In this document: piece by piece, positions 3,823 through 14,812 of the stretch
Position numbering within the stretch: the stretch's first letter is position 1
Layout of the letters: the number at the start of each line of letters is the position of its first letter
IMG/VR virus record: IMGVR_UViG_3300038520_002359
Location: 1-25,701 of that record
DNA length: 25,701 nucleotides
DNA from: a virus
Taxonomy: Duplodnaviria > Caudoviricetes
Reading direction: 5' to 3' (one strand)
Program-made: the position numbers and the translations under genes
Notes under the pieces: model-generated
Told to the model about the DNA's origin: nothing
The model's database searches: none
Seen by the model: only the letters and a program-made list of their open reading frames with translations

Positions 3823-5133
3823 ATGATACCGCAGAATACAGAAGCAGAAAGACACCTACTGTCCAGTTTTGTAAACGAACAAGGCACAGCGAAGTTCGAC
3901 GAGGTCGCCAGTATACTTGACGAGTCCGACTTCTATGATTTAAGTAATCAAACAATTTTCAAGTGCATGAAAAGTATTGCACTTTCGGGCGCGGACATAG
4001 ATGAAATATCCTTGTCCGAGGAGCTGAAGAGAGTCGGCTTACTCGATAGAGCAGGGGGAATAGCTGGAGTTCTTGGTAGCACGAATCACCTTGGCATCGT
4101 TCAGCACAAGTTGTGCGCGGAGACCATTAAGGAGAAGTCCAACCTTCGTACAATGATACGCAAGTTCAAGTCCAGCGTAGAGAGCATGGAGGATGAATCC
4201 AAGACAAGCTCAGAGGTTTCAGCTGAAGTTGAGTCCATGCTACTTGAAATGAACGATATGTCCGAACGCGACAAGGATGTTAAGCTTGCTTTGCAAGAGG
4301 TTCGGGATGAATTCAAGAGCATGATCAACGGGACATACGAACCCGATGTAATCAAGACTCACATCAGCCATCTGGATGATAAATTAAGTGACGGGGGGCT
4401 AGGCATGGGCGAGGTCTGCGTCATAGCGGCTCCTACATCCTGCGGTAAGTCACAGTTGGCTTTGAACATGGCTTGTAGGGCTCTTGACAGGCAAGGCATA
4501 CCTGCACTCGTATTCTCGTTCGAAATGCCCAAGAAACAAATCCTGAAGCGTCTAATACACGCTATGTCTGGGGTGAACCCCAGGAGAATAAGAGATGCTG
4601 TTGTGACTCATGATGAGCAGAAGAGGCTTTGGGACTGCACAAAGAAGGCAGAGGGCATGAAGCTATTTACCAGCCATAGCGTAAGAGATATCGACGATCT
4701 AGTCATACAGGCTAGAGCAATGACAAGGAAGCACGGTATAAAACTTATTGTTGTGGATTATCTGCAGTTAGTCCCTTGGGATCCGAAGAAGTTCGGGAAG
4801 ACGGATGCCATCTCTGACATATCGCACAAGATCAAACAAATGGCAATAGAGCTCAATGTAGCGGTAATATTGCTCTCCCAAGTGAACCGAGAAGGCTCTC
4901 GTTCGGAGGGTGGGCTTGAAGTTTATCATCTACGCGATTCTGGAGACATTGAGAATGACGCTGACATCATAATTATGATGTATCCAGAGAAAATGGACAT
5001 GAACGAGGCAACAAAGATAGATGAAAAAGGCAGTTATAAAAATATGATTTACAAGATCGGGAAGAACAGAGAGGGTGAAAGAGACCTCATGGGAGCATTT
5101 AAATTTTATAATCAGCACGGGAGATTCTACTAA
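3823..5133 (+). CDS. dnaB: Replicative DNA helicase, DnaB family
   Basis: N-terminal PQNTEAE, Walker A APTSCGKS, FSFEM, IVVDYLQL, LSQVNR, LRDSGDIENDAD and KNREG. Confidence 0.95.
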   Translation: MIPQNTEAERHLLSSFVNEQGTAKFDEVASILDESDFYDLSNQTIFKCMKSIALSGADIDEISLSEELKRVGLLDRAGGIAGVLGSTNHLGIVQHKLCAETIKEKSNLRTMIRKFKSSVESMEDESKTSSEVSAEVESMLLEMNDMSERDKDVKLALQEVRDEFKSMINGTYEPDVIKTHISHLDDKLSDGGLGMGEVCVIAAPTSCGKSQLALNMACRALDRQGIPALVFSFEMPKKQILKRLIHAMSGVNPRRIRDAVVTHDEQKRLWDCTKKAEGMKLFTSHSVRDIDDLVIQARAMTRKHGIKLIVVDYLQLVPWDPKKFGKTDAISDISHKIKQMAIELNVAVILLSQVNREGSRSEGGLEVYHLRDSGDIENDADIIIMMYPEKMDMNEATKIDEKGSYKNMIYKIGKNREGERDLMGAFKFYNQHGRFY

Positions 5134-8400: not shown

Positions 8401-9164
8401 TTTGCTGGAGCAATGTAATTCATCGCCTTCTTGAAAGTTGATCTAAATGGACCAAGAATGCCTTTCTCTGCAGAGGCAATATCATTGGCTATGAACTCTC
8501 TTTGAAGCCTGTCCTTCGTCTTCAGGATTTGTCTCTTGGTAGCCTCCTTGCCCAACACTGGCTCAAGAATTTCAGCAACTGTGTCATTGTCCAATTGATT
8601 CGTTGCTATTAACTTATCTATTTCATCTGCTCTCTTTCCTGCTAGGGCATGCGCCGTGCTAAAGTATTTTGCATCAACTCTTCCAAGAACATTACCAAGA
8701 CCCATACCAGTTGCTCCAGCGATAGCGATGTCTTCTACCTTTACCTCTCCTGTATCAAGAACATCCGCAAGGGTTCTTTCTGCAGCAGCAAGACCAGCAC
8801 CCCTTATGGTTGCATCTCTCACTGGAGTAATAGCGCTTTTCTTGAAAGAAACCATGTTGGTAGTACCTGCAGCTAGAAGCCTTCCTAGTTCTATATCGGT
8901 GGGGTCATCCTTGGTCATAAGTCCCTTGACCCCTTTCTTGTCCTCAAAAGCTGTTTGAGCCGCTAAACTACCAACAGCGCCAGACACAAATCTAACAGCT
9001 GGTCTAAACAAAGAGAGCTTACCTCTCAATAGACTAGCAGCTATTTCTCCTCCTACACCAGCGACTACTTCAGTCCCTGCGGACTGAGCAACCTGTGCCC
9101 CAGAAAGGGGAAGTGCTTCTATTTTCTCTTCCTCTTCCTTTTCCTTGATCTCTTCAGGATCCAT
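5436..9164 (-). CDS. Large putative internal virion / DNA-ejection protein
   Basis: 1242 aa, predominantly helical-looking with Gly/Ala-rich N-terminal segments. It is the last gene of the structural arm, like podovirus ejection proteins. Positional inference. Confidence 0.55.
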   Translation of the reverse strand: MDPEEIKEKEEEEKIEALPLSGAQVAQSAGTEVVAGVGGEIAASLLRGKLSLFRPAVRFVSGAVGSLAAQTAFEDKKGVKGLMTKDDPTDIELGRLLAAGTTNMVSFKKSAITPVRDATIRGAGLAAAERTLADVLDTGEVKVEDIAIAGATGMGLGNVLGRVDAKYFSTAHALAGKRADEIDKLIATNQLDNDTVAEILEPVLGKEATKRQILKTKDRLQREFIANDIASAEKGILGPFRSTFKKAMNYIAPAKRVGDGAREGYYKFQNEMQRAESLSTKLEASITRTLLNREELRDDITDFMNGGEMTERLAKDAIAGDLHEMRNIEMTAIKQLYKVFDETDELSLLSKEAREVVMDRMQQEIDRGHRMYDTSVYKAFVDKKWSENAQKKAAAIEEVTNSVTRKRKEQGQDISDPKVETKINAEVKSHFDHLQSMFAKDSRLDQKALIATLPGRFEIKIKDHMPGPAERAFLGEITANIQRAGFQSKYRIRDSIRHLAKIESNISVLRAVQSTSQVRYTKEPGYTEFNLPGMAGIDSDGRQMYIPAEQAHAISKLYEAEFTEQMVEGTAGFVNKVGSSLVAYSKATKVIYNPASYMVNGIGGVMAAAGNGVNIFRRSDGRFDYGKGFALAAAEVGDIKKAAGRATAESRQKLIAELNEMYEYGIGNASIAASEVAAALKNGQVGGTLSRLTQTMGKVYNVTDTATRYTIWKSNQDFLKKLQKSGVSFGANAEEASQAIKRIAATITNDTYQNYQRTSRLGKYLSRRGILPPFVTFTLEFFRNTVNQVRFAGKMTRGESFLKDFDLELPQEGADKVLRILRGEGMKRNGALMGMLAISAGAGSLLAPLYKQIFDDAAGDPLQGSQEKDDFRFFGFSYMRDKEFAATLDKETKKGTFAMTSYLFPHATVTQFMSALYDSVVNGTENQYETTKTLSGLIAEELMGEGTFVNQNVMRAIDNRDIYGEKISTAEGFESMKERLTYAIGKTFEPGILREGLKFADAIQEQGDYTTGEVVMRQLGARLTKIDFNQMAIRRVQDFSERYSDARGNYTTDYRYKFLENKISEDDINRSYQEAIASAEKAFNRIEEAYSRLDSLGYSVDEKIELFKKGNVRSEDIFRISRGMPFKPFAKGVLESTQEKYDTRVGAMDDKEAKSYIKRMSKSPDPSDRILAERFFEEYNNRKTDAYLKRTKQDKLLLNLNAADRAAIIIEMGHHTDPKMVREYKKKGIISKQVNEILKAAR

Positions 9165-10747
9165 TATGATTGATTATTTTGGTCTTCTTTTATTTCTTCA
9201 ACCTTCGGCTTCGGAGTGCCAGCAACCTGAGCGCCTTCAATTACGTCACCGAACTTATCAAACAGCGGTCTTTGAATACCAATTTCATACATGTATTGTC
9301 TGTAAATATTTTGCTTCTCTTGCGAGGTATATGGTTTATCTGTATCTGGATTTATTGCTGGAAGGTTATTCACAATATCCATAACAACTTGCTTGTTGTA
9401 TTCGAACCTAGTTGGGTCGTCTCTCTCTAGAACTTTAAGAGCATCTAGCTCAAGTTGCTTCTGCTCGACGATGTTGCCAAGCAGTCCAGCCTTGGATTGC
9501 GCTCTCATTGCAGGATCAGGATACGCCTTGCGTCTTTGCGCGTCGGTCAATCCGTCTTTACCTACAGAAGCCTTACCTCTTTGGACTTCGTTGAAGTCTG
9601 GCTTCGCGTCCATTCTGGCTTCACGATCCCTGGATGCTTGAGCGAATGAACCGCCCTGCTGGACTCTTTGAAGCTGCCTGTTGGACATTTCTTTTGCTGC
9701 ATCACTTTGCAAGAACTTCTGTTGAGCTGCTCTATCCTCCTGTCTGCGCTGTCCTTCCAGTGCATTCATTCTGGCTGCTGTGTTAGCATCCGCAAAGGCT
9801 ACGTTGCCAGAGGCATCAATAAATGGTTTAAGTCCTGGTGCTGGCTCTCCAGATATAACTGGATTACCCTGCTCTGCCTGTTGTGCTTCTAGGCGATTCA
9901 GATCCTCCATAGATATCTCTTGGGTCTGAGTAGCCATTGGATTTTCAGCTGTTGGAGCTCTTACTATGCCCATTATTCTTGGGTCTCCACCTTCCTCTAG
10001 CGGAGGAAGCGTGTATGCACCCAGAGCTGTTCCTGGTGCAGCCATTTGCTGATCAGTAAATCCTGGACCCCTTGGAGCTAACGCCTCTGCTTCAGTCTTA
10101 GGTGTTTGAAATGGAACTGGAGCTTGCTCGGGTATAGGAGTTTGAGCTACTGAAGCTGGAACTGTTGGGAGTTCAGGAGTTGGTGCAACCGCTGGAGCTT
10201 CTGTAGTTGGTGCAGCTGCTGAGTCTGCTGGTTCGTCTACAACAGGATTGTTAAATTTTTCGTATCCCGTTATTTTTCCCCTTCCTCCAAAAATTGGTTT
10301 AGTGGGATTGAAGCCCTTGGCAATAAGATCCCTCTCCTTGTCAGTCATTGGACCTCGATTTGTGCCACCAGCCATCTTTCCATATAAATTAGCTATTTTA
10401 CCGCTAATGTCGAACTGATTGTCCAGAAAATTTCCAACAGAATATCCTCCAGCCAATGCTGCAAGCTTAGGCATTCCAAGAAATGCTGCACCTCTGCTTA
10501 AAAAAGGAACTGAGGTCTTTGCTCCAATAATAGCAGGAATCGCAGATGTAGCCGCAAATCCAGGTGTAAGGGTTTCGTCCGCAATTGTTTCAACGGTTCC
10601 ACGATTACGACTCCGCGCTGCAGGTTTTTGCAAGTTTGCGCGTGCACGTGCATTAGCGTCACCCCTTGTTGCGGTTTTTTGTTTGGGCATGTTGCCCAAC
10701 AAAGTTTCTTGTGGATCTTTGTTTCCTCGGTTTCTTCCTCTTGGCAT
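9164..10747 (-). CDS. Putative internal virion protein with a Pro/Ala-rich linker
   Basis: 527 aa with a basic N-terminus, a hydrophobic Gly/Ala stretch and a PAV/PT-rich linker. TAATG coupling to the 1242-aa gene. Confidence 0.5.
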   Translation of the reverse strand: MPRGRNRGNKDPQETLLGNMPKQKTATRGDANARARANLQKPAARSRNRGTVETIADETLTPGFAATSAIPAIIGAKTSVPFLSRGAAFLGMPKLAALAGGYSVGNFLDNQFDISGKIANLYGKMAGGTNRGPMTDKERDLIAKGFNPTKPIFGGRGKITGYEKFNNPVVDEPADSAAAPTTEAPAVAPTPELPTVPASVAQTPIPEQAPVPFQTPKTEAEALAPRGPGFTDQQMAAPGTALGAYTLPPLEEGGDPRIMGIVRAPTAENPMATQTQEISMEDLNRLEAQQAEQGNPVISGEPAPGLKPFIDASGNVAFADANTAARMNALEGQRRQEDRAAQQKFLQSDAAKEMSNRQLQRVQQGGSFAQASRDREARMDAKPDFNEVQRGKASVGKDGLTDAQRRKAYPDPAMRAQSKAGLLGNIVEQKQLELDALKVLERDDPTRFEYNKQVVMDIVNNLPAINPDTDKPYTSQEKQNIYRQYMYEIGIQRPLFDKFGDVIEGAQVAGTPKPKVEEIKEDQNNQS

Positions 10748-10753
10748 ATCGGT

Positions 10754-10762
10754 ATTATATCA
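10754..10762 (-). promoter_or_regulatory. Extended -10 promoter (TGnTATAAT), probably giving a leaderless mRNA
   Basis: TGATATAAT with 6 nt before ATG 10747. The same motif and spacing occur at 19560-19568. Confidence 0.55.
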
Positions 10763-10779
10763 TATTAGTTGTGTTTGTG

Positions 10780-10800
10780 CAGTTAATGAATCCAACTGCC
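10780..10800. repeat. Left arm of the inverted repeat closing the ribozyme element
   Basis: AATCCAACTGCC (10789-10800) is the exact reverse complement of 11209-11220. Pairing extends to ~20 bp with one mismatch and one bulge. Confidence 0.85.
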
Positions 10801-10806
10801 ACGCAT

Positions 10807-10922
10807 AGCAAGCCCTCTTTCGAGGGGTTTGGCGAGTCATACACCTCCCCTCCGCCCCTTACGTCCCTTTCGGGCCGCAGGTAGCTCGGGTCGGGTTCCT
10901 ACGTCGCTCAAGCGGTATGGCG
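10807..10922 (-). other. Predicted 116-nt circularised exon with SD and a junction-spanning 39-codon ORF
   Basis: Lies between omega-G 10923 and the candidate 5' splice-site U at 10807. GGAGGGGAGGU precedes AUG 10840, and there are two GAAA tetraloop hairpins. Confidence 0.55.
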
Positions 10923-11104
10923 CATTATGTTATCGCTGCGGTTCTTTATCTGCAGCTTCTGCATGTTACCATGCAGTTCAGACTATCTCTTCATCTTTCG
11001 ATGCAGGGCGCTCTTGGGCAAATTACTGTCCGTTCTGAACTCGTTACCTAGTCGTTGCACCTTCTCAAGCATTCCTGCCCGAGCTTGGCTCAGGATTGTC
11101 CTAT

Positions 11105-11170
11105 TGGTGGAGGTGGGTGGAATTGAACCACCGTCTCTAGCCGAGGCTAGATCGATACCCTTGCACCCCC
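11105..11170 (-). ncRNA. tmRNA-like tRNA(Ala) domain with no mRNA-like domain, nested in intron P5
   Basis: GGGGGUG-CAAGGGUAUCGA-UCUAGC(CUCG)GCUAGA-GAC-GGUGG(UUCAAUU)CCACC-CACCUCC-ACCA. It has a 7-bp acceptor stem with G3.U70, A73 and encoded CCA, a T arm, no D stem and no anticodon loop. Confidence 0.85.
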
Positions 11171-11208
11171 AAGGAGTTCCCCTGAATTCACCCTGTATTG
11201 CCCTTTTG

Positions 11209-11230
11209 GGCAGTTGGATTTATTAAACTG
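11209..11230. repeat. Right arm of the inverted repeat closing the ribozyme element
   Basis: GGCAGTTGGATTTATTAAACTG is complementary to 10780-10800. Confidence 0.85.
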
Positions 11231-11240
11231 TCAAAGAAAA

Positions 11241-11996
11241 TTAGTATATAAAAGCAAAGAACCAAACGTCACAAGCGCTAACAGCCCTATTCCTTGCGCC
11301 CTTGTATTGTTGTGTTATTAAATGAGCGTCGTCCATTACTTCTGGTTGGTAACCCGCCCACATCCATGCTACTATAGCAAGGTTCCACCTTACCTTGCAT
11401 TTAGCAAGTTCAACTAAAGAAGAGTCCTTAGTTGCTAGGTATTCATCTATTCCAGATGAAACTTGAGCCATGTCAGCGCTAGATGGAGTCCAAAAAAAAT
11501 TAGGATCGGAATCGCCAAGAAGAAACCCACAAGTGTCTCCTCTTTCTGCAGTTTCAAACGGTTTTGGATTTCCGCAAAACATTCCCCTGGAACCATATAA
11601 GTAATAAGGAACCACATCAATGTTGAACCTGTATCTAGTAAATGCACTTTTTAAATCCGAGTTAGAAAGCATATGTCGAATGCTTCCATCCTTATGCTTG
11701 TAATAACCTCCTAGGTCTCCGAACCTTCTTGTCTTGTGCCTGTGATCTGGGTTGGCAGTATCTATTGAATTCAAGTCAGACGGATTAATATTATCCCACC
11801 GTATAATCCTTGTGCAATAATGCATATACTTTTGAGCTGATCCTCCTCCATTATGCCCCAGGGCTTCAGTCCCAGGGAAGTCAGGTGGGTTGTCTTGCAC
11901 TGTTGATTCTACGGATGTAGTCATCCTTGGCAAGGAATCCACGTATGTAGTAGGAGCAAGCTTGTCATCCTTGTTGTTAGGAAACCAATTAGCCAT
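11241..11996 (-). CDS. Hypothetical protein
   Basis: 251-aa ORF tightly packed in the late arm; no motif recognised. Confidence 0.7.
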   Translation of the reverse strand: MANWFPNNKDDKLAPTTYVDSLPRMTTSVESTVQDNPPDFPGTEALGHNGGGSAQKYMHYCTRIIRWDNINPSDLNSIDTANPDHRHKTRRFGDLGGYYKHKDGSIRHMLSNSDLKSAFTRYRFNIDVVPYYLYGSRGMFCGNPKPFETAERGDTCGFLLGDSDPNFFWTPSSADMAQVSSGIDEYLATKDSSLVELAKCKVRWNLAIVAWMWAGYQPEVMDDAHLITQQYKGARNRAVSACDVWFFAFIY

Positions 11997-14143: not shown

Positions 14144-14812
14144 TTACTTATTCTTTCTTGCCAAGTAACGATTATACTGGATTTTATCTTTGCCTCTAAG
14201 CTTCTTTATTTTAGCCTTGGTCATGTTATCAAACCTAGAACCAACTGCACTTGCACCTCTAGGAGCAGCTTTTTTAACAGCTTTTTTCTTTGCTTGAGCT
14301 ACTGCAAATGTTTTAGCTGCTGTTCCCTTGTTTCGTTTCTCTAAAGCTTTTGGTTTAGCACCTGCAGGAGCTGCCTTCTTCTTTGCTGGGGCTTTTGCAA
14401 CCTTTGCTGCTTTTTTCGCTGCTGTCTTTGTGCCGAACTTTATTGGAGCCTTTCCTGACGTTGCTGCTGGCTTTGACGGTGCTGGCTTTGCTGCTGACCC
14501 TCTCTTTCTTCTGCCACTAACTACCTTTGCACCTGCAGCTCCAGTTCCTATAGCAGCGCCTCCACCAATAACCTTAGCTCCTGTTTTTTGAACTTCTGAT
14601 TTAGGAATAAAGCCTCGCCTACCAGACTTCGTGAAAGAACCCCTTGCGCCTCTTTTTAATCCTGGTGTAGCTGCATATCCCACGCCTTCGGCAGTCTTCT
14701 TAGCTGCACCAACAACTTTTTTGCCAGCCTTTGTTTTGGCTGCTTTTTTTGCTGCTTCCTTAGAAGCTTTTAGAGCAGCTTGACCGCCTCGTATTAGTAA
14801 TCCAATGTTCAT
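14144..14812 (-). CDS. Lys/Ala-rich histone H1-like basic protein
   Basis: Repeated KKAAK/KAPAKKK/KPA motifs and very few acidic residues. Confidence 0.7.
   Translation of the reverse strand: MNIGLLIRGGQAALKASKEAAKKAAKTKAGKKVVGAAKKTAEGVGYAATPGLKRGARGSFTKSGRRGFIPKSEVQKTGAKVIGGGAAIGTGAAGAKVVSGRRKRGSAAKPAPSKPAATSGKAPIKFGTKTAAKKAAKVAKAPAKKKAAPAGAKPKALEKRNKGTAAKTFAVAQAKKKAVKKAAPRGASAVGSRFDNMTKAKIKKLRGKDKIQYNRYLARKNK

Follow-up and report, generated by a model that had tools for sequence, protein, structure and literature searches.

Two engineered group I layouts lie closest to the element described here. In the permuted intron-exon (PIE) design, the 5' splice site lies downstream of the 3' splice site, an exon circle is produced and homology arms are present (PMC11394858), with the intron itself halved around the exon. 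In the self-targeting-and-splicing (STS) design, which works in practice (PMC11394858, PMC10415121), the whole ribozyme comes first with its guide at the 5' end, the cargo follows omega-G, and the target U stands at the 3' end of the cargo (PMC11394858, PMC10415121; Lee et al., PMC10457212); P1 and P10 form end-to-end, and antisense arms are optional. Natural back-splicing by a group I intron has been described for the ND5-717 intron of mushroom-coral mitochondria (Chi et al. 2019, PMC6545197), which is broken in P8 because it contains most of the mitochondrial genome; the 2.1-kb circle that it makes serves as an intermediate in the production of ND5 mRNA. Circularly permuted group II ribozymes (Roth et al. 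2021, PMC8637638) are stand-alone natural intron derivatives that make RNA circles with group II chemistry and fold; the main text of that report contains no whole-word mention of phage. Conventional phage group I introns interrupt genes; their P1 is local, and a P2 hairpin usually precedes P3. Intron databases based on annotation take their boundaries from annotated exons and would therefore miss elements such as the present one (PMC11835236). In the main-text, mostly open-access literature covered, including a 2026 survey preprint and a 2025 intron database, no stand-alone natural group I family of this layout was found.

The stretch analyzed here (the window; 25,701 nucleotides of a phage contig) carries an intergenic, P2-less and intact group I ribozyme that, as its working reaction, would back-splice a 116-nt piece into an RNA circle. 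We assign this reading a probability of about 0.7. Core, U.G pair and omega-G together mark the element as a putative group I ribozyme that is neither a conventional intron nor of the PIE type. It shares with conventional phage introns the core sequence, the extra helices between P7 and P3' and the 3' end. With the PIE design it has in common the inverted order of splice sites, the exon circle and the homology arms, but its core is undivided, with no more than a short tail beyond the 5' splice site. The order of parts, the end-to-end P1, the optional arms and possibly P10 are those of the STS design; however, the window family is natural and genomic, has a phage-type P2-less core, a P1 of 4 to 5 bp and a conserved tail helix across omega-G, and its activity is predicted from sequence. 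In contrast to ND5-717, no gene is interrupted in the window, and the small circle would itself be the product. The likeness to the circularly permuted group II ribozymes lies in being a stand-alone natural intron derivative that would make RNA circles.

Genes for a helicase, ERF and endonuclease VII all lie on one strand of the window, and the opposite strand carries an SU10-type major capsid gene (best match, phage C75C1, 62%) and a series of unassigned genes. A 222-aa Lys/Ala-rich, histone-like open reading frame (ORF) without family match (14144-14812, minus strand) lies within the structural gene run. The ribozyme occupies a 493-nt gap on the minus strand between ORFs of 251 and 527 aa. 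A first-pass annotation had stated that the element interrupts no gene, and it does lie clear of both flanking ORFs, whose nearest ends are the stop at 11241 (251 aa) and the start at 10747 (527 aa). Orthologues of the 251-aa gene, for which no match was found among annotated phages, precede the ribozyme in loci L001 (76% identity) and L003. The features of the region, in order along the minus strand, are as follows:

11241..11996, minus: upstream gene, 251 aa, no family; marks the orthologous site
11243..11272, minus: weak sigma-70-like promoter match (9/12, consensus match only); would start the RNA near the 5' arm
11229..11240, minus: boxA-like motif at the RNA start (core motif match)
11209..11233, minus: 5' antisense arm, 22 bp with the 3' arm
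11199..11212, minus: alternative local hairpin, kept in L001 with a U.G top pair and absent in L003
11198..11203, minus: internal guide sequence; G11202 pairs with U10807, and G11203 can pair with exon +1
10923..11195, minus: group I catalytic core without P2 (Rfam match, fold, P3/P7 pairing)
11105..11170, minus: tag-less tmRNA tRNA-like domain, 66 nt, in the P5 loop (Rfam alignment, fold)
10807..10922, minus: exon of 116 nt that would form the circle; its last bases (10811-10807), with the splice-site U at the end, make up one strand of P1
10800..10806, minus: tail segment pairing across omega-G (G10804-G10800 with C10920-U10924)
10778..10800, minus: 3' antisense arm
10754..10781, minus: extended -10 promoter match for the 527-aa gene (10/12 plus TG), ending 7 nt before the ATG
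9164..10747, minus: downstream gene, 527 aa, no family

The minus-strand group I core proposed by the first-pass annotation was recovered in an Rfam covariance search of the native sequence, in which Intron_gpI matched 11247-10959 (minus strand) at 82 bits (cut-off, 50). P3 (11195-11189 with 11010-11004) and P7 (11053-11049 with 10985-10981) are both paired and thus provide a group I core with the guanosine site in P7, and P4 to P6, P8, P9 and P9.1 are also present in the Rfam alignment and fold. Judging from the extra P7 helices, the subgroup is presumably IA2-like, the scored Rfam model being the general one only. The core ends in the terminal guanosine typical of group I; we placed this omega-G at G10923, the position already named in the first-pass annotation, because conventional terminase introns with the same 3' end regain their frame when cut there. 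The 5' splice site is marked by a U.G pair in P1 (U10807.G11202). Its proposed location after U10807, downstream of the 3' splice site of a natural group I ribozyme, held up, as did the segment 10922-10807 ending in U; the same two sites delimit the same predicted 116-nt circle. The exon gave no Rfam match at curated cut-offs, and a hammerhead reading of it was rejected by eye. In L001 the exon is 97 nt long, with both ends conserved relative to that of the window.

The ends of the RNA are complementary over 22 bp (11233-11209 with 10800-10778), close to the approximately 20 bp claimed at first pass. Folding of 11236-10772 gave a z-score of -6.2, with 0/100 shuffles as stable. The arms are kept in L001 and, with different sequence, also in L003. 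In L003, a 6-nt unit is repeated three times at the arm-guide border 5' of the guide, which permits two arm registers.

Two placements of P1 lead to identical splice sites and an identical 116-nt circle. In the PIE-like fold preferred by the first-pass annotation, the guide would lie after the exon in a 3' hairpin (10811-10796, with U10807.G10800), the hairpin 11212-11199 would be P2, and the arms would rebuild a split P2. Both hairpins are present in the window sequence and can form there, and L001 retains a weaker version. It was also correctly noted that no U.G-containing P1 is visible upstream of P3, the local hairpin of the window having C-G instead of U.G. However, the minimum-energy fold pairs 10811-10807 with 11202-11198, with U10807.G11202 at the top, and the 3' hairpin does not form. 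The end-to-end pairing is more stable than the PIE-like fold by 3.7 kcal/mol in the window and 6.5 kcal/mol in L001; the 3' hairpin can form at the homologous site in only 2/40 relatives, and covariation ties the splice site to the 5' guide. The guide is found 5' of P3, separated from it by a 2-nt linker, and a 6-by-6 internal loop followed by the arms lies beyond P1 in the fold. The ribozyme is whole, P2-less and opened in the P1 loop; there is no split P2 for the arms to rebuild. The GCG-CGC pairing that had been called P10 does exist, and pairing of this kind is conserved, but the helix straddles omega-G (U10924-C10920 with G10804-G10800). We consequently regard the PIE-like fold as very improbable. 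The first-pass proposal of a natural back-splicing group I element is therefore supported as to the predicted 116-nt circle but not as to PIE equivalence, and it has a precedent in the coral intron (PMC6545197).

The arrangement is that of the STS type, with a 5' guide pairing with a U-ending target 3' of omega-G. P1 very probably forms end-to-end, between this guide and 10811-10807, and the local hairpin at 11199..11212 would hide the guide until the 3' arm is transcribed. As a helix of 4 to 5 bp is within chance for a single sequence (per-sequence shuffle test; P = 0.28 for the window), it is the relatives that must decide between the two models.

The closest relative, L001, was found via a neighbouring protein and has the ribozyme at the same site but no insert. 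Five core patterns yielded further members together with many conventional introns, and one 24-nt pattern (linker, P3 and P4) built from members matched 37 viral, 94 metagenome and 2 genome loci. A total of 142 matches, including the window, was obtained; 33 were dropped as incomplete, both genome loci among them, and there were 78 distinct complete elements. Ten of these were set aside by eye as conventional, seven of which give gene-like joins (the rest are L308, L340 and L328). The family consists of the P2-less elements, 68/78 (at least 68 distinct elements), a fraction that is not a prevalence because the search pattern was built from members. The 5' strand of P7 was intact in all 68, and a partner for P3 was found in 67/68. 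A duplex-energy screen over long windows did not separate members from other introns. The arm score did separate them (38 to 42 versus 0 to 32 in 47 other introns), but most members are without long arms. The clade of the window is the weakest: L003 has perfect 17-bp arms but a P1 of only 3 bp, and L282 has arms and no clear U.G. No site was found in L337. Several group I cores are clustered or nested within single phage loci (L009, L365, L143 and L157), and two tandem, end-to-end ribozymes with exons of 15 and 25 nt share one intergenic region in L144/L232.

Covariation was assessed in 40 members of the largest subfamily, which were chosen by eye and aligned on sequence alone, with every downstream column scanned as a pairing partner. 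The best partner of guide position -4 was the column before the invariant U (33 G-C, 6 A-U and 1 mismatch, in L293), and that of position -6 was the column after it (35 U-A, 4 C-G and 1 U.G). The splice-site U itself was present in 40/40 members, facing an invariant guide G. Pair counting on 28 of the 40 showed 98.4% of cells paired and 15 double changes (0/500 shuffles; slid controls, 8 to 45%), with G.U at the splice site in 28/28 aligned members; two of the five measures were not significant (61/500 and 227/500). Across the family, the guide position adjoining the wobble G takes all four bases (G 40, C 16, A 7 and U 4). Likewise, a U-A pair is changed to G-C in a second subfamily (n = 5) while its flanks stay fixed, and the A-U form occurs at three places on the core tree, which is rough; pair counts are numbers of sequences and not of independent events.

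Pairings expected to serve the second splicing step are conserved as well. Where possible, splice sites were read from alignment columns, since a rule that takes the first cognate site tends to stop too early, within the exon. In 64 of the 67 members having a site, the base 5' of the guide G forms a pair with exon +1 (the misses are L282, L292 and L326), by five types of pair (G.U 37, C-G 13, A-U 8, G-C 4 and U-A 2); counted by class, the pairing is found in 15/18 versus a null mean of 7.4 (0/20,000 permutations). P10, between the guide and the exon start, covaries family-wide; it comprises 1 bp in the window and was not significant within the large subfamily alone (70/500). Downstream of the splice site, the first 13 nt form at least 4 bp across omega-G in 59/63 members, a count that leaves out the five without a clear site (L249, L269, L282, L326 and L337). 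This tail helix was found in 48/52 classes, compared with 33 for permuted tails (maximum, 42 in 3,000) and 21 to 25 of 52 for control windows further downstream. Outside the large subfamily, it was found in 19/22 classes versus 12.4 (maximum, 18).

Exon lengths vary within the family, from 13 to 25 nt in about a dozen members to 73 to 80 nt in the large subfamily and 140 to 192 nt in five loci. The exon of the large subfamily (L233-type; 40 sequences) closes into a rod without Rfam match, and in the 76-nt rod more than one Watson-Crick type is found at 13/13 consensus pairs. The rod-shaped exon always lies upstream of a conserved, lysine-rich small gene. The 140- to 192-nt exons (L230, L263, L279, L332 and L333) share two long conserved motifs near the 3' end, have no Rfam match and have tRNA genes nearby in 4/5 loci; they are a candidate for a new structured circular RNA. 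Exons of 20 relatives gave no Rfam match at E values up to 0.5.

Another possible explanation is that the element is a conventional or decaying intron stranded between genes, with the pairing of its ends incidental or the scaffold of a noncatalytic RNA. The chance-level P1 match of a single sequence would be compatible with this, and L001 can additionally form a local U.G hairpin. Furthermore, conventional introns interleave with members on the core tree (e.g., L260), so that a single origin of the family does not follow from it. A conventional-looking P2-less group I intron with a local P1 directly before P3 was also found (L164, positions 1340-1360) and possibly represents the ancestral state of the family. 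However, the local hairpin of the window has C-G instead of U.G, and the window has no gene-restoring join. A conventional join with at least 60 codons on each side is possible in 8/68 members; the window, L001 and the rest of the remaining 60 allow none. Moreover, double changes accompany the conservation of the core, P1, exon +1 and tail pairings alike. We therefore consider a stranded intron improbable and retain the back-splicing ribozyme as the preferred reading.

The motif at 11229..11240, at the start of the RNA, resembles boxA. A boxA-like core lies within 60 nt of the guide in 20/68 members, including the window (shuffle mean, 1.8; maximum, 8), and a -10-like box just upstream of the guide was found in 33/68 (shuffles, 13.5; maximum, 26). 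With both signals placed before the guide, the transcript probably begins at the guide in many members. Nus factors bound to boxA keep 5' RNA close to the polymerase while the 3' partner is still to be transcribed (PMC6614801), and such tethering would suit an end-to-end fold. At the other end of the element, the mere 7 nt left between the extended -10 match and the ATG hint at a leaderless mRNA for the 527-aa gene, and L001 keeps an identical -10 and spacing before its next gene (positions 4850-4880).

Alternatively, the first step alone could be useful, in that a guanosine-dependent cut would trim or cap the 5' end of the downstream mRNA, with the circle as a by-product. In the large subfamily the cut would fall some 10 to 30 nt upstream of the start codon of the conserved gene, with a -10-like box preceding the guide, and a group I descendant repurposed for 5'-end processing is known in the lariat-capping ribozyme (PMC8637638). 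The exons of about a dozen members are very short (13 to 25 nt), perhaps too short for closure, and speak for a cut-only role in some of them. However, a one-step cutter would have no need of omega-G, of the exon +1 pairing or of the exon-closing rod, all of which are retained with covariation. For the next gene, a separate promoter match lies beyond the cut in both the window and L001; in L144 and L265 that gene is oppositely oriented, and in a cultured phage a terminator-like hairpin follows the element. A cutting role without circularization thus seems unlikely as an account of the family, and back-splicing to a circle remains the favoured reaction.

The cultured phage is Flavobacterium phage vB_FspM_immuto_2-6A (MW353175; locus L364, positions 1175-1450), in which a group I core (76.9 bits) lies in the gap from the end of one gene (locus position 1173) to the start of the next (1520); the only ORF across it is a 44-codon hypothetical one, a misannotation. 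The element falls within 145030-145300 of MW353175, and the phage infects Flavobacterium sp. LMO8. The U that the guide pairs with lies 18 nt beyond omega-G, for a predicted circle of 18 nt; the tail helix across omega-G is present, and at 7 nt the linker before P3 is longer. Two sister phages have identical sequence at the element. Of three annotated matches examined by eye, SP-15 (L363) and H101 (L365) showed no sign of the layout.

The P5 loop of the window ribozyme contains an insert that the first-pass annotation had missed, an Rfam tmRNA match at 11170-11105 (minus strand; 49.8 bits; cut-off, 47). It comprises a 7-bp acceptor stem with G3.U, an ACCA end, a T-arm and a 6-bp stem with a 4-nt loop, and G3.U, ACCA and T-arm are the standard marks of the tRNA-like domain of tmRNA. 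It represents a tag-less form, because the 4-nt loop replaces the tag reading frame. The P5 stem differs between the window and L001 by a compensated pair. The insert was seen only in the window; L001 lacks it and so, judged by length, do all remaining complete elements. No viral contig matched a pattern for another ribozyme carrying a tmRNA-like insert, and a pattern for the insert alone gave only tRNA T-arms among the matches listed (25 of 620 phage records). We infer that the insert is not an attP remnant, because its 5' end is complete. Tag-less tmRNAs have been reported from mycobacteriophage DS6A, the plastids of Mallomonadaceae (about 65 bp) and mitochondria, and a molecule similar to a tag-less tmRNA inhibits tmRNA, perhaps via SmpB titration (PMC11915505, PMC4131195). 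The window insert resembles these in being a tRNA-like domain alone, of about 65 nt, but it sits within a group I ribozyme, in the P5 loop, whereas the known combination is the reverse, with group I introns inside the T-loop of tmRNA.

A reaction in four steps would account for the conserved features, with a fifth specific to the window. Sequence and covariation show that the guide (11202-11198) pairs with 10811-10807, with U10807.G11202 on top, while the arms clamp the ends. The tail after U10807 would then pair across omega-G, bringing the splice sites together and masking omega-G from the P7 site until the first cut. Following group I chemistry, free guanosine would cut after U10807 and become joined to the tail. 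Omega-G would subsequently enter P7 and exon +1 would pair with G11203, whereupon the 3'-OH of U10807 would attack after G10923 and close the circle. More tentatively, RNase P and 3' trimming might free the tag-less tmRNA domain of 66 nt from the P5 loop, to act as a decoy that binds SmpB.

The purpose of the reaction is most likely the production of a nuclease-resistant small RNA during infection. Whether a widespread, stand-alone phage group I family performs its own end-to-end circularization to yield small circles used in infection, with a tmRNA decoy added in the window copy, we regard as about an even chance. For RNA engineering, the family offers some 68 natural, compact (about 220-nt core), scarless candidate circularizers, and its tail helix across omega-G would be a natural device for ordering the two splicing steps. 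As a member is present in a cultured phage with a known host, the family can be tested now, and there are concrete circles to seek: the conserved 73- to 80-nt rod, the 140- to 192-nt RNA with conserved motifs and the 116-nt circle of the window. If active, these elements would be a natural phage source of circular RNAs and would add a third use of the group I fold to ordinary splicing and lariat capping.
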